The notes beneath the pieces were generated by a model, which was not told the origin of the DNA, ran no database searches, and was given only the letters and a program-made list of their open reading frames with translations. Positions 32,085-64,000 of a stretch of 64,000 bases of DNA are shown in pieces. The stretch is from Nitrospirota bacterium (lineage in GTDB: Bacteria; Nitrospirota; Thermodesulfovibrionia; Thermodesulfovibrionales; Dissulfurispiraceae), in contig CAWBMP010000004.1 in the NCBI GenBank assembly GCA_963790025.1, forward strand, positions 1,536,001 through 1,600,000, written 5' to 3'. The position numbers and the translations under genes were made by a program. The stretch's first letter is position 1; every line of letters begins with the position of its first letter.

Positions 32085-33610
<1,526 letters not shown>

Positions 33611-33693
33611 TAAGGAAAGAGAGACAGAATCTACCTTTTAGTTTTATAGATGATTATGATCTTTGACAATGCAGGGGAAGAGAAGTAAAGAAA

Positions 33694-36721
<3,028 letters not shown>

Positions 36722-36786
36722 CTTCTTATTCTCTCTCCCTTGCTTGTCAAATTGTCTATCTTACATAGTGCACGCTTTCGCTGTAT

Positions 36787-39820: not shown

Positions 39821-40783
39821 ATGTTTATTAACCGAATGAAAAAAATCCTGTTCATTTGCGGCTCTCTCAATCAGACAACTCAGATGCACCAGATAGCTCG
39901 CCACCTTGCCGATTATGACTGTTACTTCACTCCTTTTTACGGGGATGGGGTCATAAGAACGCTCTCGAAAAAAGGTTGGCTGGACTTCACTGTTCTGGGT
40001 GGCTCGTTCAGGCAAACAACTATGCGATACCTCCGGGAAAATGGATGCAGAATCGATCATGAGGGTAAAGGTAACAGCTACGATCTGGTCCTGACATGCA
40101 GCGATCTGATCATGCAGAAAAACATACTGAAAAAGAAAGTCGTTCTCATTCAGGAAGGAATGACCGACCCGGAAAATTTCATCTATCACATGGTCAGGGC
40201 CCTTGGACTGCCCCGCTATCTGGCGAGCACGTCGATGACAGGGCTTTCCCATGCCTATGAGAAATTCTGTGTCGCGTCCGAGGGCTACCGTGACCTGTTT
40301 GTCGGGAAAGGGGTGGAGCCAGAAAAGATCGTGGTAACAGGCATCCCGAATTTCGATAACGTTCGGCAATATCTGGATAACGATTTCCCCTACAGTAAGT
40401 ATGTGCTTGTCGCCACCTCAGATACACGCGAGACCTTCAAATTCGACGATAGAAAGACGTTCTTAAAAAAAGTTGTGCAAATCGCGGGCAGCAGGAGATT
40501 GATATTTAAGCTTCATCCGAATGAGAATGCCCGGCGGTCTATAAAAGAGATAGGCTCAGTCGCGCCGCAGGCCCTTGTTTTCACTGACGGCAACGCGCAT
40601 CACATGGTCGCCAACTGTGATGTCCTTATCACCCAGTATTCCTCTCTCGCCTTCACAGGTGTTGCATTGGGAAAAGAGGTGCACTCCTATTTTGATATCG
40701 ATATGCTCAAGAGATTGAAGCCTGTGCAGAATGACGGCAGTTCAGGCCGGCAAATTGCCGAAGTATGCAGGAGATGCCTGTGA
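39821..40783 (+). CDS. Putative GT-B fold protein (CMP-sugar transferase or UDP-GlcNAc 2-epimerase-like)
   Basis: Motifs IQEG, IVVTGIPNFD, FKLHPNE, ITQYSSL; the HP and SS motifs resemble sialyltransferase/CDP-glycerol transferase families. Confidence 0.6.
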   Translation: MFINRMKKILFICGSLNQTTQMHQIARHLADYDCYFTPFYGDGVIRTLSKKGWLDFTVLGGSFRQTTMRYLRENGCRIDHEGKGNSYDLVLTCSDLIMQKNILKKKVVLIQEGMTDPENFIYHMVRALGLPRYLASTSMTGLSHAYEKFCVASEGYRDLFVGKGVEPEKIVVTGIPNFDNVRQYLDNDFPYSKYVLVATSDTRETFKFDDRKTFLKKVVQIAGSRRLIFKLHPNENARRSIKEIGSVAPQALVFTDGNAHHMVANCDVLITQYSSLAFTGVALGKEVHSYFDIDMLKRLKPVQNDGSSGRQIAEVCRRCL

Positions 40784-41595
40784 ATATAATCACCCTCATC
40801 CAGACAAGGACAGGCTCGACGAGACTCCCCGCCAAAGTGCTGTTGCCGCTGGGAGGCAAGCCGCTTTTTATACGTATGGTGGAGCGGGTCAGACAGGCAT
40901 CATTTTCAGGCAAGGTTGTCATCGCCACCACCTATGATGCCAATGATGACATCATCGAGCAGATCTGCAGCACGGAAGCCATTCCGTGCTTCAGAGGACA
41001 CCCTCTCGATCTGCTCGACCGCCACTACCAGGCCGCTGTCAGATACGGTGCTGACGCTGTTGTAAAAATCCCCTCCGACTGTCCGCTTATCGATGTACAG
41101 GCTATCGACAGGGTGCTCGCTTTTTTCATCACCCATATAGAACGGTTTGATTATGTGAGCAACCTGCACCCTGCCACATACCCCGACGGAAACGATGTTG
41201 AAGTGTTCACCATTGATGCGCTGAAAACAGCGTGGACATATGCCCGCAGGTGGTTGGAGAGAGAGCACACTACCCCATATATGTGGGAGAACCCGGAGCG
41301 TTTCCGGATAGGTAATGTGCATTGGGAAACCGGACTTGACTATTCCATGTCGCATCGCTGGGTGCTGGATTATAAAGAAGATTACGAATTAATACAGGCG
41401 GTGTATAACGCGCTGGCAGATAACGACCAATGCTTCAGTATCGGGGCGATTCTCAGCTTTTTGGAGAAAAACCCGTCAATACGGAAACTTAACGAAAGGT
41501 ATGCCGGCGTGAACTGGTACCGGCACCATCTTGACGAATTAAAGACTATCAACCCTGAGCAAACACGAATAAAGGCGAAACTGGGGGCGGCATGA
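40765..41595 (+). CDS. SpsF/KdsB-like cytidylyltransferase
   Basis: IQTRTGSTRLPAKVL, DLLDRHY, DCPLID, YPDGNDVE, EREH.T; the true start may be GTG 40780. Confidence 0.85.
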   Translation: MQEMPVNIITLIQTRTGSTRLPAKVLLPLGGKPLFIRMVERVRQASFSGKVVIATTYDANDDIIEQICSTEAIPCFRGHPLDLLDRHYQAAVRYGADAVVKIPSDCPLIDVQAIDRVLAFFITHIERFDYVSNLHPATYPDGNDVEVFTIDALKTAWTYARRWLEREHTTPYMWENPERFRIGNVHWETGLDYSMSHRWVLDYKEDYELIQAVYNALADNDQCFSIGAILSFLEKNPSIRKLNERYAGVNWYRHHLDELKTINPEQTRIKAKLGAA

Positions 41596-42428
41596 AGGAG
41601 GAGCAACTTTTTCGATTACGGCAGATGGCACTGAAGGTGCGGGAACGTTGCATAAGAATGTCGTGTTACGGAGGGGCATTTACAGGTTCTTCCCTGTCAT
41701 GCACCGATCTGCTTGTTTATCTATATGGCAAATATCTCTCATTAGGCTCGGGCAATACCAACCGCGACTATTGTTTTTTATCGAAAGGCCATGCAGTCCC
41801 GGCACTATATGGCACCCTGGCAGAGATAGGCTTGTTATCGGAAGAAAGATTCGCGGCACATCTGTCGACCAGTGATGATATTTACTGGCACCCCAACAGG
41901 AATGTGCCGGGCGTCGATTTCCATTCGGGCTCACTGGGTCATCTCCTTTCGGTAGCTGCAGGTGTTGCCCTTGACATCAAATTGGAAGGACAGGAGAGCA
42001 AGGTGGCTGTTATCCTTGGGGACGGTGAACTCAACGAAGGGTCTAACTGGGAGGCTTCCCTGGTAGCAAGCTCTTACAAGCTCGACAACCTTGTCGTTAT
42101 TATTGACCGGAATGGGTTCCAGGCAAACAGGAAAACCGAAGACCTGCTCCCCCTGGAACCTCTTGATGCAAAATTCGGGGCCTTTGGGCTCGCTCCGGAA
42201 ACAGTGGATGGCCATGATTTCGAAAAATTGGACGAGCTATTTTCGCGCATACCGTTCAAGCATGGCCGTCCCAACGTGGTCATTGCCGATACTTTAAGGG
42301 GTAAAGGGCTTCCCAGCATCGAATCACGAGCCGACCGCTGGTTTTGCAATTTTTCTCCTGATGAGTTGGAGGGGCTTATTAAAGAACTGCATGATGCCGT
42401 ACTACCAAAAAGCGGGGCCGCGGTATGA
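41592..42428 (+). CDS. Transketolase-like N-terminal subunit
   Basis: Motifs LSKGHA, GSLGH, and the ThDP motif GDGELNEG...N. Confidence 0.9.
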   Translation: MKEEQLFRLRQMALKVRERCIRMSCYGGAFTGSSLSCTDLLVYLYGKYLSLGSGNTNRDYCFLSKGHAVPALYGTLAEIGLLSEERFAAHLSTSDDIYWHPNRNVPGVDFHSGSLGHLLSVAAGVALDIKLEGQESKVAVILGDGELNEGSNWEASLVASSYKLDNLVVIIDRNGFQANRKTEDLLPLEPLDAKFGAFGLAPETVDGHDFEKLDELFSRIPFKHGRPNVVIADTLRGKGLPSIESRADRWFCNFSPDELEGLIKELHDAVLPKSGAAV

Positions 42429-43336
42429 CGACCTATCAGGAATTGCTCAGGGACATTGCACTTTCGGATGAACGAATCGTCGTGATGACTGCTGAAAACC
42501 TCGCCTCGATACGTAACATTCCCGGGGACCTCGGCAAACGCTTCATCGACACAGGCATTGCGGAACAGTCCCTTGTAGGGATGGCGGCAGGACTCGCTCT
42601 CCGCGGACGGATTCCGGTCGTGCATGCGCTCAGCGCGTTCCTGAGCATGAGGGCATTCGAGTTTATCCGGACCGATGTCGGCATCGGCAACTTACCCGTG
42701 AAACTCTGCGGAGGCGTTCCGGGTTTTCTTTCCGAAGCCAACGGACCGACCCATCAGGCAATCGAAGATATCGCACTCATGCGCATTATCCCTCCCATGG
42801 GTATATTCTGCCCATCCGACGAACAGGACCTCACTCTTGGACTAAGGCAGGTCCTGGAGCACCCTGGACCCTTTTACATCCGCCTGAACCACGCCAAACC
42901 TGTCATCCAACATTTATCAGATTTTGAAATCGGCAAAGCCGAAGTCATATATGACGGTTTCGATATCGCAATCCTCGTTTACGGATTTCTCTTGGCTGAA
43001 ACGGTCAAAGCCAGAGAGATTTTGAAAGCAAAAGGGCTATCTGTCCGCCTGGTCAATCTCCGCACTCTTAAACCTGTCGATGAAGAAGCTATTATGGCAT
43101 CCGTACGCCGCAAATCACTTCTGGTGACCGTCGAAGACCATTTTATTACCGGCGGACTGTATTCAATTTTATGCGAAATACTGATCAGAAGACATGCGAA
43201 ATGCCAGGTGCTGCCGATCAGTCTCGAAAACAGATGGTTCAGGCCGTCCCTTCTTCCAGGAGTTCTTGACTACGAAGGCTTCACAGGAGAAAAAATAGCT
43301 GAAAAAATATTGAAAAAATATAATGGAGGGCGTTGA
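42425..43336 (+). CDS. Transketolase-like C-terminal subunit
   Basis: Motifs GIAEQ, GPTHQ.IED, LKPVD, VEDH...GGL. Confidence 0.9.
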   Translation: MTTYQELLRDIALSDERIVVMTAENLASIRNIPGDLGKRFIDTGIAEQSLVGMAAGLALRGRIPVVHALSAFLSMRAFEFIRTDVGIGNLPVKLCGGVPGFLSEANGPTHQAIEDIALMRIIPPMGIFCPSDEQDLTLGLRQVLEHPGPFYIRLNHAKPVIQHLSDFEIGKAEVIYDGFDIAILVYGFLLAETVKAREILKAKGLSVRLVNLRTLKPVDEEAIMASVRRKSLLVTVEDHFITGGLYSILCEILIRRHAKCQVLPISLENRWFRPSLLPGVLDYEGFTGEKIAEKILKKYNGGR

Positions 43337-43337
43337 T

Positions 43338-44660
43338 ATGCTGCAGTATCCAGTCATTGCCGAATCTGACAAACTCTATGCCCGCGCCCTGGGACTCATA
43401 CCCAATGTAACACAGACACTTGCAAAGGGACCGGGACAGTACATTAAAGGTGTCGCACCCAAGTATCTCAAGGAGGGCAAGGGCTCTCATGTATGGGATG
43501 CAGACGGAAACGAATACATCGATTTCACCATGGCAGTAGGCCCCCTTTCCCTGGGCTACTGTTATCCGCGTGTCGACGAAGCAATACGGGACCAATTAAA
43601 ACACGGCATAACGTTTTCGATGATGCATCCACTGGAGGTCGAGACAGCCGAACTGATTCGTTCCGTTATTCCCTCAGCCGAAGCTATCCGCTTCAGCAAG
43701 ACCGGAGCTGATGTGACATCAGCAGCGGTCCGTCTTGCGCGGGCGTACACCAAACGTGACAAGGTGCTCTGCTGCGGATACCACGGCTGGCATGACTGGT
43801 ATATCGGCGTGACCGACAGAAACAACGGCGTGCCGGGGGCCGTCAAGGACCTGACCTTTACCTTTAACTATAATGACATTGACTCCGTGGAAGCTTCTAT
43901 CGACGATGATACGGCTTGCATTATACTCGAACCCGTTGTGTTCGAAGAACCCCGGGACAATTTTTTGAGCAAGGTGCGTGACCTCTGTGACCAGCAGGGG
44001 ATAGTTTTGATCTTCGACGAAATGTGGACCGGATTCAGGCTGGCCCTGGGAGGCGCTCAGGAGTATTTCGAGATAGATGCAGATCTGGTCTGCTACTCCA
44101 AAGCAATAGCCAATGGGATGCCTCTGTCTGTGCTGGCAGGGAAAAAAGCAATAATGGAACTGCTGGAGAAGGACGTATTTTTCTTCACGACCTTCGGCGG
44201 CGAGGCATTGTCGCTCGCAGCAGCATGCGCAACAATCATGGAGCTGCAAGAGAAGGATGTACCACGAAATCTGGCACGGCAGGGAGAGAAAATAAAAAAT
44301 ACTTATAATGCCATGGCTGCAGGTCTCGGCATTGAATACACAAAATGCGTGGGCCTGCCCTGCCGCACACTTGTCACCTTTGATCCAAAAGCAGGCGATC
44401 CTCTCGTGATGAAATCTTATGTGCAGCAGGAACTGTTCCGGATGGGTATTCTATGGTCGGGTTTTCATACCGTCAGCTTCTCACATACCGACAGCGACAT
44501 TCAGCGCCTTTCAGAGGCATATGAAGAGGTGCTCCCGCTCCTGAAGACAGCGGTCGCTGAAGGAAACATATATGAACTCCTGCGGGGAGAGCCTGTGCAA
44601 CCGGTGTTCAGAAGGACAGGCAACTTCAATACCAAACCAAAACAGGCTGCCAGACAATGA
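43338..44660 (+). CDS. Class III aminotransferase (GSA-aminomutase-like)
   Basis: Motifs DADGNEYID, YHGWHDW, IFDEMWTGFR, SKAIANG, TTFGG. Confidence 0.9.
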   Translation: MLQYPVIAESDKLYARALGLIPNVTQTLAKGPGQYIKGVAPKYLKEGKGSHVWDADGNEYIDFTMAVGPLSLGYCYPRVDEAIRDQLKHGITFSMMHPLEVETAELIRSVIPSAEAIRFSKTGADVTSAAVRLARAYTKRDKVLCCGYHGWHDWYIGVTDRNNGVPGAVKDLTFTFNYNDIDSVEASIDDDTACIILEPVVFEEPRDNFLSKVRDLCDQQGIVLIFDEMWTGFRLALGGAQEYFEIDADLVCYSKAIANGMPLSVLAGKKAIMELLEKDVFFFTTFGGEALSLAAACATIMELQEKDVPRNLARQGEKIKNTYNAMAAGLGIEYTKCVGLPCRTLVTFDPKAGDPLVMKSYVQQELFRMGILWSGFHTVSFSHTDSDIQRLSEAYEEVLPLLKTAVAEGNIYELLRGEPVQPVFRRTGNFNTKPKQAARQ

Positions 44661-45460
44661 ACATGTTTTCACTGAAACACATGGTAGCCATTGTCACCGG
44701 AGCACTCGGACTGCTCGGCAAAGAGCACTGCCGCGCCCTTGCAGGGGCAGGGGCGCACGTCGTCGTCAGTGACCTGAATGAAGAAAGATGCCGGGAATTT
44801 GCCCTCACTCTGACACCTGATGCACTCGGAGCAGGGACAGACGTATCCGATGCCGCCTCTGTAAGCAGCCTGCTTCATAAGACAATGGAGCGCTTTGGCC
44901 GTATCGATATCCTTGTAAACAACGCCGCAGTCAATGAGAAGTTCGAAGACCCTCTCCAGCACCTGAAAATGTCTCAGTTTGAAAATTTCCCCCTCGAAGT
45001 ATGGAAAAAAATAATGGATGTCAATGTTACCGGGGTCTTTATCTGTTCACAGATCATAGGCTCAGTTATGGCTGAAAAGGGCAAAGGCAGCATCATTAAC
45101 ATAGCATCCACCTATGGAGTCGTTGCCCCCGATCAGTCGATCTATAAAACTCCCGACGGACAGCAGGCCTTTTTCAAATCGCCTGCCTACCCGGTCAGTA
45201 AAGGAGCGGTAATTGCTTTCACAAAGTTCCTCGCTGCCTATTGGGGCCATCGCGGCGTCAGGGCCAACACGCTCTCTCCCGGAGGAGTTGAAAATGCTCA
45301 GGACGATTTTTTTGTTAGAAACTATTCCGCTAAAACCCTTCTGGGCAGAATGGCACAGCCCTCGGATTACAAAGGTGCCATAGTGTTCCTGGCGAGCGAC
45401 GCATCCTGTTACATGACCGGAGCGAACTTGATCGTGGACGGGGGGTGGACCGCTATATGA
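44657..45460 (+). CDS. Short-chain dehydrogenase/reductase
   Basis: Motifs TGALGLLG, NNAA, YPVSKG, VDGG. Confidence 0.92.
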   Translation: MNMFSLKHMVAIVTGALGLLGKEHCRALAGAGAHVVVSDLNEERCREFALTLTPDALGAGTDVSDAASVSSLLHKTMERFGRIDILVNNAAVNEKFEDPLQHLKMSQFENFPLEVWKKIMDVNVTGVFICSQIIGSVMAEKGKGSIINIASTYGVVAPDQSIYKTPDGQQAFFKSPAYPVSKGAVIAFTKFLAAYWGHRGVRANTLSPGGVENAQDDFFVRNYSAKTLLGRMAQPSDYKGAIVFLASDASCYMTGANLIVDGGWTAI

Positions 45461-46020
45461 GGACAGTGAAGCCCGCAACAGCAACGGTCAGGAACAAGGC
45501 CCGAAACATACGGTTGCTGCTCACTGATGTCGATGGCGTGCTTACAGACACGGGTGTGTATTATTCGGACAAAGGAGAAGCGCTTAAGAGATTTTCAATT
45601 CGTGACGGCATGGGAGTGGAGCGACTCCGCTTACTGGTAAACGTCGATACCGGCATTATCACCGGCGAGAAGTCGGCATCCATCAAAAAGAGGGCTGAAA
45701 AGCTCCAGATAATGGAATTGCATCAGGGTATTAAGGAAAAAGTGGGACTGCTGGATGAAATTGCGGCAAGAACTTCACTCAGCCGGCAGCAGATCGCCTA
45801 TATCGGCGACGATATGAACGACATCGAAATCATTAATGCGGTGGGGCTTTCCGCTTGTCCTGGCGACGCATTTCCTTTAGTAAAAAAAGCCGCCGATTTC
45901 ATCTGCCGCGCTCATGGAGGACACGGTGCATTCAGAGAATTCGTGGAGTTCATCATCGACTCTAAACTCAGCAGTAACAACGGCCGCAAGAGCCGCAAAA
46001 AAAGGAGGGACTCTCAATGA
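45457..46020 (+). CDS. KdsC/YrbI-family ulosonate-phosphate phosphatase (HAD)
   Basis: Motifs DVDGVLTD, RDGMG, YIGDD.ND, GGHGAFRE. Confidence 0.9.
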   Translation: MRTVKPATATVRNKARNIRLLLTDVDGVLTDTGVYYSDKGEALKRFSIRDGMGVERLRLLVNVDTGIITGEKSASIKKRAEKLQIMELHQGIKEKVGLLDEIAARTSLSRQQIAYIGDDMNDIEIINAVGLSACPGDAFPLVKKAADFICRAHGGHGAFREFVEFIIDSKLSSNNGRKSRKKRRDSQ

Positions 46021-46925
46021 AACCAATCAGGAAGGTTCATCTAAGGGAACACAGTATAGGAGAAGGCGAACCCGTCTATATCATTGCTGAAGTCGGAATC
46101 AATCATAACGGTTCGTTGGCGATCGCCAAGAAAATCATCGACGGAGCTGTTTTTGCCGGGTGCGATGCCGTAAAATTTCAGAAACGGACCCCTGAACTCT
46201 GCGTTCCAAAGGACCAGTGGTATATAGAGCGCGATACCCCGTGGGGCAGAATGACTTATATTGAATACCGCAGAAGGGTGGAGTTCGACGTCGAGGATTA
46301 CAGTGAGATAAACCGTTACAGCAAGGAGAGGGGCATTGTCTGGTTTTCCTCCTGCTGGGACGAGGAATCAGTTGATTTCATGGAGCAGTTCAATCCTTCA
46401 GTTTATAAAGTCCCTTCGGCCTCGCTGACGGACCACGACCTTCTCCGAAAGATAAAGTCAACCGGCAAAGCGATTATGCTCTCCACCGGGATGTCAACAA
46501 TGCAGGAAATAGAAGATGCGGTGAGTGTAGTCGGCAATGACAATTTACTGATAGCCCATTCAACTTCAACCTATCCATGCAAGGTGCCTGAGCTTAATCT
46601 CAGGATGATACCAGTGCTGATGGAAAAATACCCTGGTATTCCTGTCGGGTACTCAGGCCACGAAACAGGCCTGGCGCCAACGTGGGCCGCGGTCGCCCTT
46701 GGCGCCTCTTTCATTGAGCGCCACGTCACCATAGACCGGGCAATGTGGGGGACCGACCAGGCTGCATCGGTCGAGATAATCGGTATGCACAACCTTGTCA
46801 GGAACGTCCGCGACATCGAGAAGTCCATAGGTGACGGCATCAAAAGGGTCTATGACAGTGAAAAGGAAGCGCGTAAAAAGCTCCGCCGCGTCCGCAGTGC
46901 AGACGACGCAATTGCTGTTGCGTGA
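46017..46925 (+). CDS. NeuB-family ulosonate synthase lacking the C-terminal SAF/AFP domain
   Basis: Motifs IAEVGINHNG, AVKFQKR, STGM, STYP, GYSGHE, IERH.T. Confidence 0.9.
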   Translation: MKPIRKVHLREHSIGEGEPVYIIAEVGINHNGSLAIAKKIIDGAVFAGCDAVKFQKRTPELCVPKDQWYIERDTPWGRMTYIEYRRRVEFDVEDYSEINRYSKERGIVWFSSCWDEESVDFMEQFNPSVYKVPSASLTDHDLLRKIKSTGKAIMLSTGMSTMQEIEDAVSVVGNDNLLIAHSTSTYPCKVPELNLRMIPVLMEKYPGIPVGYSGHETGLAPTWAAVALGASFIERHVTIDRAMWGTDQAASVEIIGMHNLVRNVRDIEKSIGDGIKRVYDSEKEARKKLRRVRSADDAIAVA

Positions 46926-56592: not shown

Positions 56593-56862
56593 ATGAAAGA
56601 GAGCTGCCCAGGAAGCAAGGAAATAACAAGGCCATACCCGGAAGAATTGATCTGTGCCTACTGCACGCACAAAAACGAGATCTGGACGGACGAGCCCGAC
56701 ATGATCTGCAGAGGGTGCGGTAAGACTATAACCCGGGACATGATCCCCTCGTGTATTCAGTGGTGTCCGGCTGCAAGGGAATGCATCGGCCACGCGAAGT
56801 ATGAAAGGCTCATGAAAAAGCTGAACGAGCAGGAAAAGTTAGCAGACGCCTCAAAAAAATGA
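56593..56862 (+). CDS. Small Cys-rich zinc-ribbon-like protein
   Basis: CPGS, CAYC..EIWTDE...CRGC, CIQWC...C. Confidence 0.75.
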   Translation: MKESCPGSKEITRPYPEELICAYCTHKNEIWTDEPDMICRGCGKTITRDMIPSCIQWCPAARECIGHAKYERLMKKLNEQEKLADASKK

Positions 56863-57100: not shown

Positions 57101-57667
57101 TTAGCGGTCAAATGCAGTAATATCAGCAGGGTAGGTTATTGATTTATTGGCTACCTTGGCCCAAGGCGTGAGCGTATGGTCTTTGATGGAATGTGCATTT
57201 ATTATGTGTCTGACCTGGATTCCCCGAATCAGGAGCGCATCGCCTATCAGTGACCGATGGCATCGCCATGGTACAGCCTCTGCACACATGACCGCCGTTG
57301 TCTTTTCTTCCGATATCCTGATCAGGTTTTCGATATTCTCTTTAAACTCTTCAGTCTGCATGTAATCGGCGAATCCCCGAAAGGACGCATTTTTCCATGC
57401 CGTGTTCTGAGAGTCTTTAAGTGGATGGCGTAATCCGCCAAGTCCTTTAAGATGCAGGTATTCAATCCCAGCTTCTTTCAAACTTTTCTCCAGCACGTCC
57501 CCGTTAAATTGAGGGTTATGACGTGATTTCGGGATTGTCCTGATATCCACCACATTTTTTATCTCATAGCACTTCAGGAGTTCTAAGAATTCAGGGGTCT
57601 GCCTTGTAGAATGGCCCACGGTAAATATAACTGTCTTCCGGGCTAATTTAGAAGAAGAGGAACGCAT
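57101..57667 (-). CDS. DUF488 family protein
   Basis: Motifs FTVGHSTR, VDIRT.P.SR.NPQF, LGG, MCAE..PWRCHR. Confidence 0.9.
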   Translation of the reverse strand: MRSSSSKLARKTVIFTVGHSTRQTPEFLELLKCYEIKNVVDIRTIPKSRHNPQFNGDVLEKSLKEAGIEYLHLKGLGGLRHPLKDSQNTAWKNASFRGFADYMQTEEFKENIENLIRISEEKTTAVMCAEAVPWRCHRSLIGDALLIRGIQVRHIINAHSIKDHTLTPWAKVANKSITYPADITAFDR

Positions 57668-57801
57668 TGTGCTTACATTATACTGCAAAAAAAGCCTCCC
57701 GGAAGCAATTAGAAGCCTAATATATACCTTATTTCCCGTATACGCATTGCTGGCTCCAAATTCGAATGTGGTACAATGATACCGGGCAGGTAAAGCTGAT
57801 A

Positions 57802-61005: not shown

Positions 61006-62445
61006 TCACACAATCGGTTTGAATTGTTTCATCATAGCTGGTTTCTTATCCAATATTTCAGAGATCAGCCATATAGTGACTTCGTTCTGAAACTTTTGAA
61101 TCTTACAACCCTTTTCGTAAGGCATTTTAAGGTCGCCATTGTACTGGACATTATTCGCCGGGCACAATCCGCCACAGAGATACCTGGACCAGCAACTGAT
61201 GCACTCCTCACACTGGAACACAAAACCCCTCAACTGTTGACATAACCTGTTCTGTTTGTCAATCTTGAGACCGGTGTCGACGTCCCCTAGCTTGTATTCC
61301 TCGATGCCGACAAAGCCCATGCATGGGTAAAGATCTCCTGATCCTGAGACGCAAAGGCTATTGATTCCTGCACCGCAGGGCGTGGTTTTTGGAGTTTCAT
61401 AATACACCTTGGCTATGTTATTGCTCATCACGACATCGGTTGCATTGTCCTTTTCCAACAACTCCTTCAAATAGAAGTGTGCAAACCTCAGATATTCTTT
61501 CTTCATGTCCTCTAAATCTTCGTCAGAAATGACAAAGTTGCCGTTTCCATTAAAGAGCTTGCTTGCCTCATTTGCAAATCCGACCTCGACATCGGGAAAG
61601 CCCATGTTTTCGAGGAATTTGTAAACCTCCAGTTTTTTCAAATTTGGCGGCGCAAGAGTCGCTTTAATGGATACCCCGACTTCATTGGTGTCCATTACCC
61701 TTAAAACATTCGAAATGACAGTATTCCAGCTTCCCCTTCCATCCTGATACGGGCGATTGAAATTGTGGTTTTCTTTGGGCCCATCGAGGCTTACACCTAT
61801 ACTCAGCCTCCTGGACCTCAAAAACTCGATGATCTCATCGTTCATTACCGTCCCGTTAGTTGTGAGCTTGTAGTCAAACTTTCGAATGCCCCGGTCTTTT
61901 ATTTGATTGCAATAGTCTATGGTAGACTTTATAACCTCGAAATTCAGAAACGGTTCTCCGCCGTAAAAGTCCACCGTGATTTCGTCGTTCTCAGTTGAGT
62001 GCTGCACGAGAAAGTCAATCGCCTTTATCGCGGTCTCTTTGCTCATTTTCCCTTCACTTTTTCTGACGTATTTACCGCCGTCGTTCCAGCAGTATCTGCA
62101 ATGCAGATTGCATCCGGCGATCAAGTTCAAGGTGAAAGTTACAATCCGTGTCTTGAAGTGTATGTTTTCCGGCGGGAAGTAAGAATGTTTGGTTTTTTGA
62201 AACAGCACCCCTCTTCGTTCCAAATCCCGAATTTCTGCCATGGCGTCTTTAACCGCCACTTTCGGGTATTTACCGTGAAGCTTCTGCAGGATATCGGAAT
62301 CTGAGTTAATGTTCCACAATTCAAGGACATCTCTTGCCACGGCATCGATCCTGAAAAACTTCGCGCTCTCGACATCAAAAAGCAGCGTCGTGCCCTCAAT
62401 ATCAAAGATATGCACCTGCTTGTCTTTTAAAGTCTGCATCATCAT
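61006..62445 (-). CDS. RRE-radical SAM-SPASM peptide maturase (CteB/ranthipeptide-synthase-like)
   Basis: N-terminal VHIFDIEGTTLLFDVES (RRE-like), CNLHCRYC, FYGGEP, TTNGT, SLDGP, and SPASM CGAG...GDLYPC...CISC....LCGGLC...GC. Start at the ATG overlapping the upstream TGA. Confidence 0.92.
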   Translation of the reverse strand: MMMQTLKDKQVHIFDIEGTTLLFDVESAKFFRIDAVARDVLELWNINSDSDILQKLHGKYPKVAVKDAMAEIRDLERRGVLFQKTKHSYFPPENIHFKTRIVTFTLNLIAGCNLHCRYCWNDGGKYVRKSEGKMSKETAIKAIDFLVQHSTENDEITVDFYGGEPFLNFEVIKSTIDYCNQIKDRGIRKFDYKLTTNGTVMNDEIIEFLRSRRLSIGVSLDGPKENHNFNRPYQDGRGSWNTVISNVLRVMDTNEVGVSIKATLAPPNLKKLEVYKFLENMGFPDVEVGFANEASKLFNGNGNFVISDEDLEDMKKEYLRFAHFYLKELLEKDNATDVVMSNNIAKVYYETPKTTPCGAGINSLCVSGSGDLYPCMGFVGIEEYKLGDVDTGLKIDKQNRLCQQLRGFVFQCEECISCWSRYLCGGLCPANNVQYNGDLKMPYEKGCKIQKFQNEVTIWLISEILDKKPAMMKQFKPIV

Positions 62446-63860
62446 TGTTTCTGAAGCGAAGAGGTGCACTTCTTTATTTGAAGCGCTATGGTGCACTTAT
62501 CAAACTCGGCAGAATTCCTGCATTTGTTTGTCTTCTGCTTATCAGAAGTGCACTTATTTACCTGGATTTCAATGGTGCAATTGTCTAACTTTTCAGCAAC
62601 TGTGCACTTGTTATCTATCTGGGCATTGGAAGTGCACTTATCTACTTGTGTTGTATTGTCGCATTTATCCCATTGCGCCGCATACGTGCACTTATTGTAT
62701 TGTTCAGCTGCGCCGCATCGATTATTCTGCAGTTCAATAGTGCACTTGTTGAACTGTGCGTCTATAGTGCATTTATTGTATTGCGCCTGATTGGTGCACT
62801 TGTTTACGTTTTCTTCCGCAACACATTTATCAATTTGCGCTGCCGTAGTGCACTTATCAAGCTGGTACGCAACCGTGCATCTGTTGGTCTCGGCAGGAGT
62901 CGTGCATTCGTTCGTTCTCTGCTTATCTGATGAGCACTTGTTCACTTGTATTTCCGCTGTGCATTTGTCGATTTGAGCATCAGAAGTGCACTTATCAATC
63001 TGGTACGCAACCGTGCACCTGTCGAGCTCGGCGGCTGTCGTGCATTTCTTTGTTTTCTGGTTACCGGATGTGCACCTGTCTACTTGTGCCTCTGTTGTGC
63101 ATTTGTCGATTCGTGCCTCGACAGTGCACTTATCAAGCTGATACGCAACTGTGCAGTTGTCGACCTCGGGAGGAGACTGGCACTTGTTTGTTTTCTGGGT
63201 ATCGGAAGTGCACCTGTTTACTTGTCCCTCTATCGTGCACCTGTCAATTTGCGCTGCAACCGTGCACTTGTTGATCAGCTCATCCACGGTACATCTGTCA
63301 AATTGCGCTGCAACCGTGCACTTATTGAATTGTTCGTTCATAGTGCATCTATTGTACTGTGCCGCACCGGTGCATTTATTTATATGTGCCGGCATGGTAC
63401 ATTTGTCCAGCTGTGAATCTCTGCTGCAATTATTGAACTGATACGCAATCGTGCACCTGTCAATATCGGCAGCACTCTCGCACTTGTTTATTTTCTGGTT
63501 AGCGGAAGTGCATTTGCCTACTAGTCCCTCTACAGTGCATCTGTCAAATTGCGCTGAAATCTTGCACTTATTGAATTGTGACTCAATTGTACATCTGTCA
63601 TGTTGCGTATTTGAATTGCACTTGTTGATCTGTTCCGGTATAGTGCATTGATCACGTTGTGTATCAGTGATGCATGGCCTTTCTTGTGTCTCTAATTTGA
63701 ATTCCTGCAGATTTTCTCTCCGGGTTGCAGCAGTTATTTTCCCGTCAGTTTCAGATTCGTGACTGCCGGCGCTGTGACCTTCCGCATCAATGTTTGACAA
63801 AGGCACGATATGTTTCGATTTAGAAACAACTTTCCCTTTTTTTATTCCCTTTGTTTTCAT
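62442..63860 (-). CDS. Cys-repeat protein: 62-aa leader plus 45 Cys-led repeat units; putative giant substrate of the adjacent radical SAM enzyme
   Basis: Long clean ORF with RBS AAAGGGGGAG, a Cys every 9 or 10 residues from position 63, and an ATGA overlap with the maturase. Confidence 0.85.
   Translation of the reverse strand: MKTKGIKKGKVVSKSKHIVPLSNIDAEGHSAGSHESETDGKITAATRRENLQEFKLETQERPCITDTQRDQCTIPEQINKCNSNTQHDRCTIESQFNKCKISAQFDRCTVEGLVGKCTSANQKINKCESAADIDRCTIAYQFNNCSRDSQLDKCTMPAHINKCTGAAQYNRCTMNEQFNKCTVAAQFDRCTVDELINKCTVAAQIDRCTIEGQVNRCTSDTQKTNKCQSPPEVDNCTVAYQLDKCTVEARIDKCTTEAQVDRCTSGNQKTKKCTTAAELDRCTVAYQIDKCTSDAQIDKCTAEIQVNKCSSDKQRTNECTTPAETNRCTVAYQLDKCTTAAQIDKCVAEENVNKCTNQAQYNKCTIDAQFNKCTIELQNNRCGAAEQYNKCTYAAQWDKCDNTTQVDKCTSNAQIDNKCTVAEKLDNCTIEIQVNKCTSDKQKTNKCRNSAEFDKCTIALQIKKCTSSLQKQ
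62445..63674 (-). repeat. Coding tandem repeat with a 27/30-bp period
   Basis: GTGCAC/GTGCAT motif (Lys/Arg-Cys-Thr codons) recurs every 27 or 30 bp; units diverge, including at synonymous positions. Confidence 0.9.
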
Positions 63861-64000
63861 GATGTGCTCCCCCTTTCATATAGTTACAGTCGAACGGAAA
63901 CCAGTCTATACAGCAATGTCGGCTAAACATATCGCGCGCCTTACTGCGGGTTCGCTGCTCATATCACGGTCCAGAGATGTATCAGTTTTCACGCAAAAAA

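Follow-up and report, generated by a model that had tools for sequence, protein, structure and literature searches.

Two adjoining genes on the reverse strand were examined in the window, meaning the whole 64,000-nt stretch of DNA that was analysed. The upstream gene encodes a long Cys-repeat protein and the downstream gene a radical SAM/SPASM enzyme, with the following layout.

63867..63873, minus strand: Shine-Dalgarno-like GGGGGAG, 6 nt 5' of the repeat-gene ATG (direct sequence reading)
62442..63860, minus strand: coding sequence of the repeat protein (472 aa, ATG start, stop included), the presumed substrate (ORF list, sequence, unit statistics, relatives in L001-L005)
62442..62445, minus strand: ATGA overlap of the repeat-gene stop and the enzyme-gene start, suggestive of translational coupling (direct sequence reading)
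61006..62445, minus strand: coding sequence of the radical SAM/SPASM enzyme (479 aa, stop included) (ORF list, family scores, alignment, structure match)

The stop-to-stop frame of the repeat gene holds only five codons ahead of its ATG. At the junction the repeat frame reads CAA TGA and the enzyme frame reads ATG ATG ATG CAG, so that the TGA of the repeat gene overlaps the first ATG of the enzyme gene (62445-62442). The ORF list extends the enzyme to an upstream GTG (61006..62496, minus strand); judged from the sequence, the true start is the ATG at 62445, giving 479 aa. The N-termini of homologues align at this ATG, and the exact 479-aa sequence is present in a public protein collection. Differences among the 38 nine-codon units of the repeat gene were distributed over codon positions 1, 2 and 3 as 2472, 2235 and 3797, and this excess at the third position supports the repeat-protein reading frame. 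Plus-strand ORFs across 62445-63651 and period-9 frames at 62482 and 63142 were set aside as antisense echoes of the Cys repeat.

The repeat protein is divided into a Cys-free region and a long series of Cys-led units.

63675..63860, minus strand: Cys-free N-terminal 62 residues, Lys-rich and not hydrophobic; candidate leader or recognition region (composition, hydropathy, relatives)
62445..63674, minus strand: 45 Cys-led units with the core [D/N]-[K/R]-C-T-x-x-x-Q and a linker of 1-2 residues (unit counts)
62824..63269, no strand assigned: higher-order tandem repeat of 138 nt (46 aa, five units), 3.2 copies, 77% matches (Tandem Repeats Finder, TRF)

The first of the 45 Cys is residue 63, and the units comprise 38 of 9 aa, six of 10 aa and one of 8 aa. 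Thr follows Cys directly (+1) in 34/45 units and Gln occupies +5 in 34/45, while Asp/Asn is found at -2 of 41/44 Cys and Lys/Arg at -1 of 39/44. Every one of these figures, together with the ORF and the TGA/ATG overlap, had been given in the initial annotation and was reproduced by recount and sequence reading. When the non-Cys residues were shuffled 10000 times with Cys positions fixed, the maxima reached were 13 for Gln +5, 17 for Asp/Asn -2, 16 for Thr +1 and 16 for Lys/Arg -1, against 34, 41, 34 and 39 observed; at least 20 equal gaps arose in 0/10000 random placements of 45 Cys. Positional conservation in the units is far beyond chance. In the six 10-mers, Gln lies at +5 of the unit's own Cys in 6/6 and Asp/Asn at -2 of the next Cys in 5/6. 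These longer units are spaced 46 aa apart, matching the TRF repeat, and the 138-nt higher-order repeat is a sign of recent expansion. AlphaFold2 prediction of the protein from a six-row alignment gave no fold (mean pLDDT 38.0, pTM 0.17, no residue at 70 or above), and the stapled solenoid or fibre that had been proposed at the outset is neither backed nor refuted by this model.

Three regions of the enzyme were delimited by alignment and structural prediction.

62146..62418, minus strand: RRE-like N-terminal domain (about residues 10-100), three predicted strands and then three helices (AF2 model; alignment to CteB)
62089..62112, minus strand: radical SAM cluster motif C112-x3-C116-x2-C119 (invariant in 21/21 clade sequences; Pfam Radical_SAM 5.6e-15)
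61105..61377, minus strand: SPASM-type region with seven Cys, C357, C375, C415, C418, C424, C428 and C447 (clade alignment; full-length match to TIGR03974 and CteB)

The enzyme matched the Pfam models PF04055 (5.6e-15) and PF13353 (1.2e-09) and carries CxxxCxxC within the Radical_SAM domain, which places it in the radical SAM superfamily. Its C-terminal Cys follow the pattern C-x12-G-x4-C ... C-x2-C-x5-C-x3-C ... C, the seven-Cys arrangement of two-cluster SPASM enzymes; in the clade alignment C357, C375, C415 and C418 are invariant and C424, C428 and C447 nearly so, and the predicted fold tracks CteB to the C-terminus. In the AF2 model the N-terminal domain consists of strands 11-16, 19-24 and 29-33 followed by helices 35-44, 49-55 and 62-77. 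It aligns to CteB residues 6-100, and its RRE-like topology is that of the AF2 model. CteB, the SCIFF maturase (TIGR03974; PDB 5wgg, 5why), was the best match in both sequence and fold over the full length, including the N-terminal domain (5wgg, E 8.9e-65 over residues 10-462; TM 0.79/0.85 for the predicted fold). The CteB-like assignment made in the initial annotation, with its CxxxCxxC and SPASM Cys pattern, was upheld, and the segment called RRE-like there has the predicted strands and helices just listed. Of the HMMs it had put forward for the enzyme (SCIFF maturase, SPASM, RRE/PqqD), the SCIFF maturase model gave 278.4 bits, below the cut-off of 425, the Pfam SPASM model PF13186 gave no match at E<=0.01 and the PqqD Pfam model gave none. 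The best NCBIfam scores include those of thioether formers, namely the SCIFF maturase (278 bits), QhpD (274) and PapB (258). Precomputed Pfam annotations show PF13186 in SCIFF-clade proteins and lack it in members of the enzyme's clade. For no NCBIfam family did the enzyme reach the curated cut-off, and its reaction is therefore not transferable by family membership. Its clade (25 rows) forms a single branch with SH-like support of 99, apart from the SCIFF-named and QhpD-named clades.

The pairing of the two genes was then followed in relatives. At all five reference-genome loci with an enzyme of 41-44% identity (L001-L005), a period-9 Cys protein with 31-32 Cys is encoded 9-24 nt upstream of the enzyme and in the same orientation, so the initial annotation's proposal that close homologues be checked for neighbouring Cys-periodic ORFs had a positive outcome at 5/5 loci that could be read. 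This reading covered five clade enzymes and left out the window's own subclade (P0001, P0003, P0004); 16 clade enzymes, including the closest relatives of the window enzyme (73-77% identity), are known from metagenomes alone and their neighbours lie outside the count. Two other clade enzymes, P0015 and P0016, match L003 and L002. A period-9 Cys ORF was found at 0/74 other loci, where enzyme identity is 33% or less. Outer flanking genes vary among the relatives' loci (TrkAH, sodium:solute symporter, GH2). All six full-length family members have their first Cys between residues 62 and 73. With six proteins taken together, Gln occupies +5 in 127/202, Asp/Asn -2 in 127/196 and Ser/Thr +1 or +2 in 160/202; none of the candidate acceptor positions is kept throughout the family, and the invariant element of the presumed substrates is Cys itself. 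At 9/9 of the nearest outgroup loci examined, a 26-28-aa peptide with two Cys is encoded just upstream of the enzyme, which points to the upstream gene as the substrate slot in this enzyme lineage.

The window locus, which belongs to a Nitrospirota genome, departs from its relatives in two respects. Five relatives have in common a third, secreted gene that is absent from the window locus and gave no tblastn match in the window. In addition, 7/7 relatives having an N-terminus carry RR-x-F-[L/I/M] and a moderately hydrophobic stretch, both absent from the window protein. The relatives' product is probably exported, as this twin-arginine-like N-terminus and the secreted third gene conserved alongside it suggest; because both are missing at the window locus, the window copy may work differently or be in decay. 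The initial annotation had considered secretion unlikely since no signal peptide was visible, and this holds for the window copy, in which none was detected (maximum 15-aa Kyte-Doolittle hydropathy 0.53), but not for the seven relatives. No Tat-signal model was among the NCBIfam and Pfam families reported at E<=1 for the relatives' N-termini. Conservation of the twin-arginine-like stretch is higher than is usual in signal peptides.

Public collections hold little that resembles the repeat protein. No Pfam or NCBIfam model matched it, its exact sequence is absent from a collection of 15 billion proteins that contains the neighbouring enzyme, and a word-indexed search gave 0 matches at E<=0.001 among 3861 candidates. 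No usable match was found in the ESM Atlas. A profile search of 1.84 billion representatives returned 166 matches at E<=0.001. Among the matches listed, the commonest Cys gap was 9 in 137/150, only P0121 and P0124 passed the family-signature filter, and relatives were found as fragments only; one further match, P0128, has an N-terminus in common with the family. The remaining listed matches were rejected as unrelated period-9 repeats lacking Gln +5. In tblastn searches, nine plasmid records and two phage records showed matches at 20-25% identity, the best of which, H1, was spurious, since it arose from an antisense frame of a 27-nt repeat gene. With the exact sequence absent and relatives recovered only as fragments, protein-based genome mining would miss this class of Cys nonapeptide-repeat proteins.

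From the gene pair, its conservation, the resemblance of the enzyme and the repeat statistics, we infer, as the probable reading, a two-gene, translationally coupled maturation system in which the CteB-like enzyme builds many thioether rings of the ranthionine type from Cys residues of the 472-aa protein. The enzyme would dock on the N-terminal region of the repeat protein and proceed along the repeats, unit by unit. In each unit an acceptor residue near the Cys would lose a hydrogen from a carbon of its side chain to a 5'-deoxyadenosyl radical, and the Cys sulfur would close a thioether ring, with a change of -2 Da. Candidate acceptors are Gln +5, in register with its own Cys, Asp/Asn -2, in register with the following Cys, and Thr +1 or Ser/Thr +2. 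The outcome could be up to 45 small rings per polypeptide, that is, a covalently stapled protein and not a small peptide. A more specific proposal is advanced tentatively, as plausible but somewhat short of an even chance: a processive poly-ranthionine protein, in which one enzyme descended from short-peptide RiPP maturases sets tens of rings (up to 45), one per nonapeptide, to yield a stapled, protease-hard material that in relatives is exported by the Tat route beside a co-conserved secreted partner. Such a class would have stayed invisible because the protein sets searched lack the product of the repeat gene. Candidate biological roles include envelope material and metal or sulfur handling, among others.

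Among the alternatives, a different radical SAM reaction on the repeat protein survives best, although it is improbable: sactionine (alpha-carbon) links, oxidation of Cys to formylglycine in the manner of anaerobic sulfatase maturases, epimerisation, methylation, or carbon-carbon links without the Cys sulfur. SPASM enzymes catalyse many reactions, as NCBIfam family names attest, the enzyme reaches no family cut-off, and the second-best solved structure is an anaerobic sulfatase maturase (E 7.1e-16; TM 0.63). The thioether-forming families, however, score 258-278 bits, far above the sulfatase maturase (113.5), the cyclophane formers (70-87) and others, and the one constant feature of the presumed substrates is Cys itself.

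A multi-core RiPP precursor is less likely still. Its units would be cyclised and a protease would cut after the Lys/Arg before each Cys, releasing about 45 related macrocycles of 9-10 residues, much as the initial annotation had envisaged in its library of 9-mers. Lys/Arg at -1 of 39/44 Cys does offer potential regular cleavage sites, the units differ in sequence (mean pairwise identity 0.33), and the nearest outgroup enzymes have short peptides as their targets. In the relatives, by contrast, Lys/Arg is found at +8 in only 0.24-0.36 of units, so that the cleavage-site reading fails family-wide, and the twin-arginine-like export motif sits on the whole protein. Scans of 23 window ORFs and of flanking ORFs at the relatives' loci turned up no gene for a protease or exporter; this result leaves the macrocycle library without the genes it would call for and argues weakly against a RiPP in the strict sense (leader removal and a small mature peptide).

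The host lineage is anaerobic and sulfur-cycling. That, the occurrence of other period-9 Cys repeats in secreted multidomain proteins (seen without gene context) and the loss from the window copy of the relatives' N-terminal motif and third gene would suit a repeat protein that is no substrate at all, be it a structural protein that shares the operon and binds metal or sulfur or forms disulfides, or a decaying remnant; this is the least likely reading, against which stand the retention of the pair in 6/6 full-length cases, which come from distant phyla and have different outer flanks, the intact ORF with its codon-position bias and start-stop overlap, the lack of Gln +5 in the other, unrelated period-9 classes, and an odd number of Cys (45) unsuited to full disulfide pairing.

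The favoured reading, thioether stapling of a protein-sized substrate, has a precedent. In Methanococcus voltae the Cys-repeat protein CrpA receives ranthionine links from CrpC, as shown by MS in a 2026 paper (PMC13692751); CrpA has 298 aa and 11.7% Cys (supplement), its links are reported to survive collision, and four crosslinks were localised on one fragment. As in the window, a two-cluster SPASM radical SAM enzyme adjoins a protein-sized Cys-repeat protein with a Cys-poor N-terminal region followed by C-terminal repeats (PMC13692751); CrpC bears an RRE, which the N-terminal domain of the window enzyme resembles. The initial annotation had overstated the novelty of the substrate's size, given CrpA/CrpC in print and QhpC/QhpD as an older case. 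The concept was already published in 2026 for an unrelated family, and the window pair adds a new case, so far unannotated, to this recently described type of system. Against TIGR04463, the CrpC family, whose cut-off is 525, the window enzyme scores 98.6 bits, and it therefore belongs to a different family. The substrates also differ: CrpA has 10 copies of a 17-residue motif rich in Ala, Gly and Cys, with several Cys each, whereas the window protein has a polar 9-residue unit in 45 copies with one leading Cys, and the CrpA homologues in the PMC13692751 spreadsheets are of the Ala/Gly type, unlike the window protein. No CrpB-like paralogue was seen at the window locus.

CteB links Cys to Thr, and its reported in-vitro link Cys32-Thr37 (i to i+5) has the spacing that separates Cys from Gln +5 in the window protein (PMC8172795). 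The precursors of SCIFF maturases are short, with some six Cys in a 45-residue stretch, compared with 45 Cys in 410 residues of a 472-aa protein; the window enzyme, at 278.4 bits, and the SCIFF maturases also fall in separate clades. QhpD links Cys to Asp/Glu in QhpC, a quinohemoprotein amine dehydrogenase subunit, and so resembles the favoured reading in that a SPASM enzyme acts on a protein subunit and not on a free peptide (PMC8172795). QhpC receives three thioether links as against the tens proposed here, the QhpD score is 273.9 bits (TIGR03906, cut-off 453), and, as regards a qhp operon context, the 23 neighbouring window ORFs scanned gave no match to a dehydrogenase-subunit family. The PapB precursor is a short peptide with the motif C-x3-D, and this acceptor spacing differs from Asp/Asn at +7/-2 in the window protein. 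PapB makes six Cys-Asp links (PMC8172795), and the PapB/freyrasin system is similar to the proposed one in that one enzyme makes repeated links on one precursor; the score against the PapB family (NF047865) is 257.8 bits with a cut-off of 340. By their names, TIGR04115 (CXXX-repeat) and NF038107 (Cys-every-fifth CefB) are also SPASM maturases of targets with regularly spaced Cys. Their target periods are 4 and 5 versus 9 in the window, and the enzyme scores 121 and 115 bits against cut-offs of 350 and 600. A full-text literature search gave no paper on the chemistry of either family: TIGR04115 is mentioned a single time, in a paper on another subject, and NF038107 nowhere.

Should the proposed chemistry prove right, the window enzyme would stand for a second and independent lineage with RiPP-type thioether stapling of a whole protein, on a substrate far longer and more regular than CrpA. 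The poly-ranthionine proposal, if true, would imply that the enzyme sets far more crosslinks than the four mapped to a single fragment of CrpA. The outgroup enzymes, with a two-Cys peptide in the same gene slot, provide a natural comparison that could reveal by what route a maturase of peptides becomes able to act on a protein. The design of one Cys per unit is also experimentally convenient: insofar as Lys/Arg precedes almost every Cys, trypsin should free unit-sized peptides, and ring position and completeness should be readable unit by unit.

The Cys nonapeptide-repeat protein and the CteB-like radical SAM/SPASM enzyme are encoded by two overlapping genes.

62442-63860, minus strand: coding sequence of the repeat protein, 472 aa, ATG start (ORF list and sequence)
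61006-62445, minus strand: coding sequence of the enzyme, 479 aa, opening with three consecutive ATGs

We consider it moderately likely that the two products belong together as substrate and enzyme, numerous Cys thioethers being stapled into the repeat protein by its CteB-like partner. This reading was the best supported, based on the pairing of the genes, its conservation, the substrate slot of outgroup loci, and family resemblance. The repeat protein would be the substrate of the enzyme, and the thioether chemistry, ring count, and docking are likewise putative. In the sequence, GGGGGAG lies six bases ahead of the repeat-gene ATG, merely five codons precede this ATG in the stop-to-stop frame, and the repeat-gene TGA overlaps the first of the enzyme's three ATGs (ATGA, 62445-62442). 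The ORF tool lengthened the enzyme gene up to a GTG at 62496; the ATG was preferred because the N-termini of homologues begin there in a 21-sequence alignment and the exact 479-aa protein is present in a public protein collection. The enzyme gene is followed 3' by genes for an ACT-domain protein and a PRK05313-family (NF003700) hypothetical protein, and then by housekeeping genes.

Full-length matches were obtained to several NCBIfam families of radical SAM/SPASM peptide maturases, most of them named thioether formers, and all fell under the curated cut-offs: SCIFF maturase (278.4 bits versus 425), QhpD (273.9 versus 453), nif11-type (265.2 versus 518.7), PapB (257.8 versus 340), and the CrpC family, TIGR04463 (98.6 versus 525). 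By these thresholds the enzyme lies outside each of the CrpC, QhpD, and CteB families; catalysis of a different radical SAM reaction is nonetheless considered unlikely. Pfam reported Radical_SAM and Fer4_12, and nothing else. The CxxxCxxC motif (C112/116/119) and a SPASM pattern of seven Cys (C357, C375, C415, C418, C424, C428, and C447) were both conserved in the 21-sequence alignment. CteB is the system that the enzyme resembles most, and the only close solved structure (5wgg, E 8.9e-65, residues 10-462). The superposition of the AlphaFold2 model (mean pLDDT 86.5, pTM 0.87) on CteB spanned 460 columns (E 1.5e-34, TM 0.79/0.85), in agreement with the earlier assignment; the second-best structural match was an anaerobic sulfatase maturase (TM 0.63). 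Three strands and three helices at the N-terminus of the model form a predicted RRE topology.

Related chemistry has been described. In one report, CrpC, a TIGR04463 enzyme, introduces ranthionine links into CrpA, a 28.8-kDa protein containing ten copies of a 17-residue Cys motif (PMC13692751). A second source lists QhpD, which links Cys to Asp/Glu in QhpC, SCIFF peptides, with Cys32-Thr37 in vitro versus Cys32-Thr34 in vivo, and freyrasin, with six Cys-Asp links (PMC8172795). By analogy with CrpA/CrpC and QhpC/QhpD, the window pair may work in a similar way. Full-text searches of openly available papers turned up no description of a nine-residue Cys repeat paired with a radical SAM enzyme. 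The concept is already published; the enzyme clade, motif, scale, and putative export link are new.

A script reproduced the hand counts made earlier for the repeat protein: 45 Cys, beginning at residue 63, head 38 units of 9 aa, six of 10 aa, and one of 8 aa, with Thr at +1 and Gln at +5 each in 34/45 units (counted from the Cys), and Asp/Asn at -2 in 41/44 and Lys/Arg at -1 in 39/44 (before the next Cys). Over 10000 shuffles with Cys fixed, maxima at these four positions were merely 13-17, and random placement of 45 Cys never reached even 20 equal gaps. Differences between units at codon positions 1/2/3 numbered 2472/2235/3797; this dominance of the third position indicates a coding frame. 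Tandem Repeats Finder detected a 138-nt higher-order repeat of five units at 62824-63269. Within the six 10-mers, the spacing of Gln to its own Cys was kept in 6/6 and that of Asp/Asn to the next Cys in 5/6, which points to a conserved core, [D/N]-[K/R]-C-T-x-x-x-Q, followed by a variable linker. AlphaFold2 gave no confident fold (mean pLDDT 38.0). A multi-core peptide library, in which the units would be separate cores, is a rather improbable alternative.

No Pfam or NCBIfam model matched the repeat protein, a word-indexed protein search found zero matches, and no usable match came from the ESM Atlas. The exact sequence was missing from a 15-billion-protein collection that includes the enzyme and other proteins encoded on the same 1.74-Mb contig, and the repeat proteins of two related loci (L001 and L003), as delimited here, were likewise missing. 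Together with the short contigs (2.2-3.7 kb) on which the enzyme's closest relatives lie, this fits with assembly breaks at the repeat and with a repeat gene that gene callers miss.

A word-indexed search with the enzyme returned 758 relatives at E<=0.001; among the best 120, 21 were 41-99% identical, almost all unnamed, and the next was 33% identical. The clade alignment was scanned over 185,579 species genomes, giving 79 loci, all of which were searched by script for periodic-Cys ORFs. Leaving aside an antisense echo (L002) and one ORF that is unrelated (L072), such ORFs were confined to L001-L005. These five are the loci with enzyme identities of 41-44%; two belong to Krumholzibacteriota, one to Eisenbacteria, and two are uncultured. 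The proposal that close enzyme homologues would also sit beside Cys-periodic ORFs was therefore borne out at 5/5 loci in this identity range. The repeat ORFs are on the enzyme's strand, end 9-24 nt upstream of the enzyme gene, and encode 356-368 aa with 31-32 Cys, the first at residue 62-73, and 24-26 nine-residue Cys-to-Cys intervals per protein. Inspection of the 25 next loci (L006-L030) for any Cys-rich neighbour revealed no periodic ones. The outer flanks of L001-L005 vary (TrkAH, a solute symporter, a GH2 glycosidase), so the conserved entity is the cassette, not the neighbourhood; that the repeat protein is a non-substrate or decaying neighbour of the enzyme is very unlikely. A FastTree phylogeny of 122 rows (the window enzyme, 117 of the best 120 matches, and four locus enzymes; the short P0002, P0089, and P0106 and the L005 enzyme were left out) placed the 25 clade rows on a single branch with SH-like support of 99; the clades carrying SCIFF and QhpD names lay apart from it. 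The window enzyme clustered with P0001, P0003, and P0004.

A profile of the six repeat proteins was run against 1.84 billion representatives (E<=0.001) and gave 166 matches. Among the best 150 of these, 137 had a period-9 Cys pattern and only two fragments (P0121 and P0124) the family signature; P0128 has the relatives' N-terminus in common. The remaining matches were rejected as family members, being other kinds of repeat. Many of these period-9 matches are near-perfect, minisatellite-like repeats. A C-[D/N]-x-N-G-x-P-D-x class comprises secreted multidomain proteins with subtilase, P-domain, FG-GAP, or dockerin domains, and a C-x-S-N-T-F-G-N-x class long proteins mostly without a Pfam match, one with a CBM_5_12 domain; no Pfam model falls on the repeat in these unrelated proteins (among P0131-P0270). 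Within the six-protein family Cys is the sole invariant position, and pooled counts were 127/202 units for Gln at +5, 127/196 for Asp/Asn at -2, and 160/202 for Ser/Thr at +1 or +2. Matches of the repeat protein by tblastn to plasmids and phages were at 20-25% identity. The best of them (CP137943.1 39113-40462) was rejected as the antisense reading of a 27-nt repeat gene; the genuine product of that gene has S-A-A-S-N-T-G-Y-x nonapeptides. Such 27-nt-type repeats produce period-9 Cys frames as echoes, and the plus-strand window ORFs across 62445-63651 are the same kind of antisense echo.

The window copy differs from its relatives at the N-terminus. The seven relatives with this region (L001-L005, P0121, and P0128) start with a strongly conserved R-R-x-F-[L/I/M], followed by a stretch of moderate hydrophobicity and the motif H-[I/M]-x-M-[I/V]-G. 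From its sequence this region reads as a twin-arginine export signal; Tat models were absent among the families reported by HMM scans of the relatives. Its conservation is unusually strong for a signal peptide, and it might be an enzyme docking site instead of, or besides, an export signal. The window N-terminus is Lys-rich and non-hydrophobic, and hydropathy analysis showed no hydrophobic stretch, consistent with the initial annotation, in which no signal peptide was visible. In 5/5 relatives a third gene, with a product of about 640 aa, directly follows the enzyme gene.

L001, 6509-8470: third gene
L002, 3854-5752: third gene
L003, 7469-9391: third gene
L004, 7474-9393: third gene
L005, 7344-9392: third gene

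The products share 34-70% identity. Besides a signal peptide and CARDB/PPC-type domains, they contain a sorting domain of the type IX kind (Por_Secre_tail/FlgD_ig) at the C-terminus; the N-terminal 300 residues matched nothing. No match to this gene was found within the window.

The nearest outgroup loci (L006-L012, L014, and L015), from Omnitrophota and Planctomycetia MAGs with 30-33% identical enzymes, carry a 26-28-aa two-Cys ORF in the same upstream slot (9/9 examined).

L011, 5844-5924: outgroup peptide ORF
L008, 1811-1891: outgroup peptide ORF
L010, 5216-5296: outgroup peptide ORF

The peptide is basic, conserved, and on the same strand, and ends in F-C-x-C-x-R-V-L-W, with C-x-C near the C-terminal Trp. 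Neither peptide nor outgroup enzymes passed any NCBIfam model, and judged by sequence they look like an undescribed short-peptide RiPP family. Given this occupant of the slot, the enzyme lineage appears to have shifted from a short peptide substrate to the repeat protein.

Other features were noted elsewhere in the window.

32085-36722: rRNA operon, host bacterial, with about 85 nt separating 16S (end 33609) from 23S (start 33694)
56593-56862, plus strand: 89-aa ORF with nine Cys
57101-57688, minus strand: ORF without an NCBIfam match
39821-46925, plus strand: gene run of sugar-nucleotide and nonulosonic-acid type

The rRNA spacer contains no tRNA, and no 5S rRNA match was reported within the window. 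RpoD places the host in Nitrospirota, near Thermodesulfovibrionales/Dissulfurispiraceae, with 96% identity to a protein labelled Nitrospirae bacterium and 84-93% to those labelled Dissulfurispiraceae. The 89-aa ORF, between the UbiX gene and the minus-strand ORF, includes C-x-x-C pairs, resembles a zinc ribbon, and has no NCBIfam match. The plus-strand run encodes a cytidylyltransferase, split transketolase-like subunits, an aminotransferase, an SDR, a KDN-9-P/KdsC-type phosphatase, and a NeuB-like synthase, and looks like a surface-glycan cluster.
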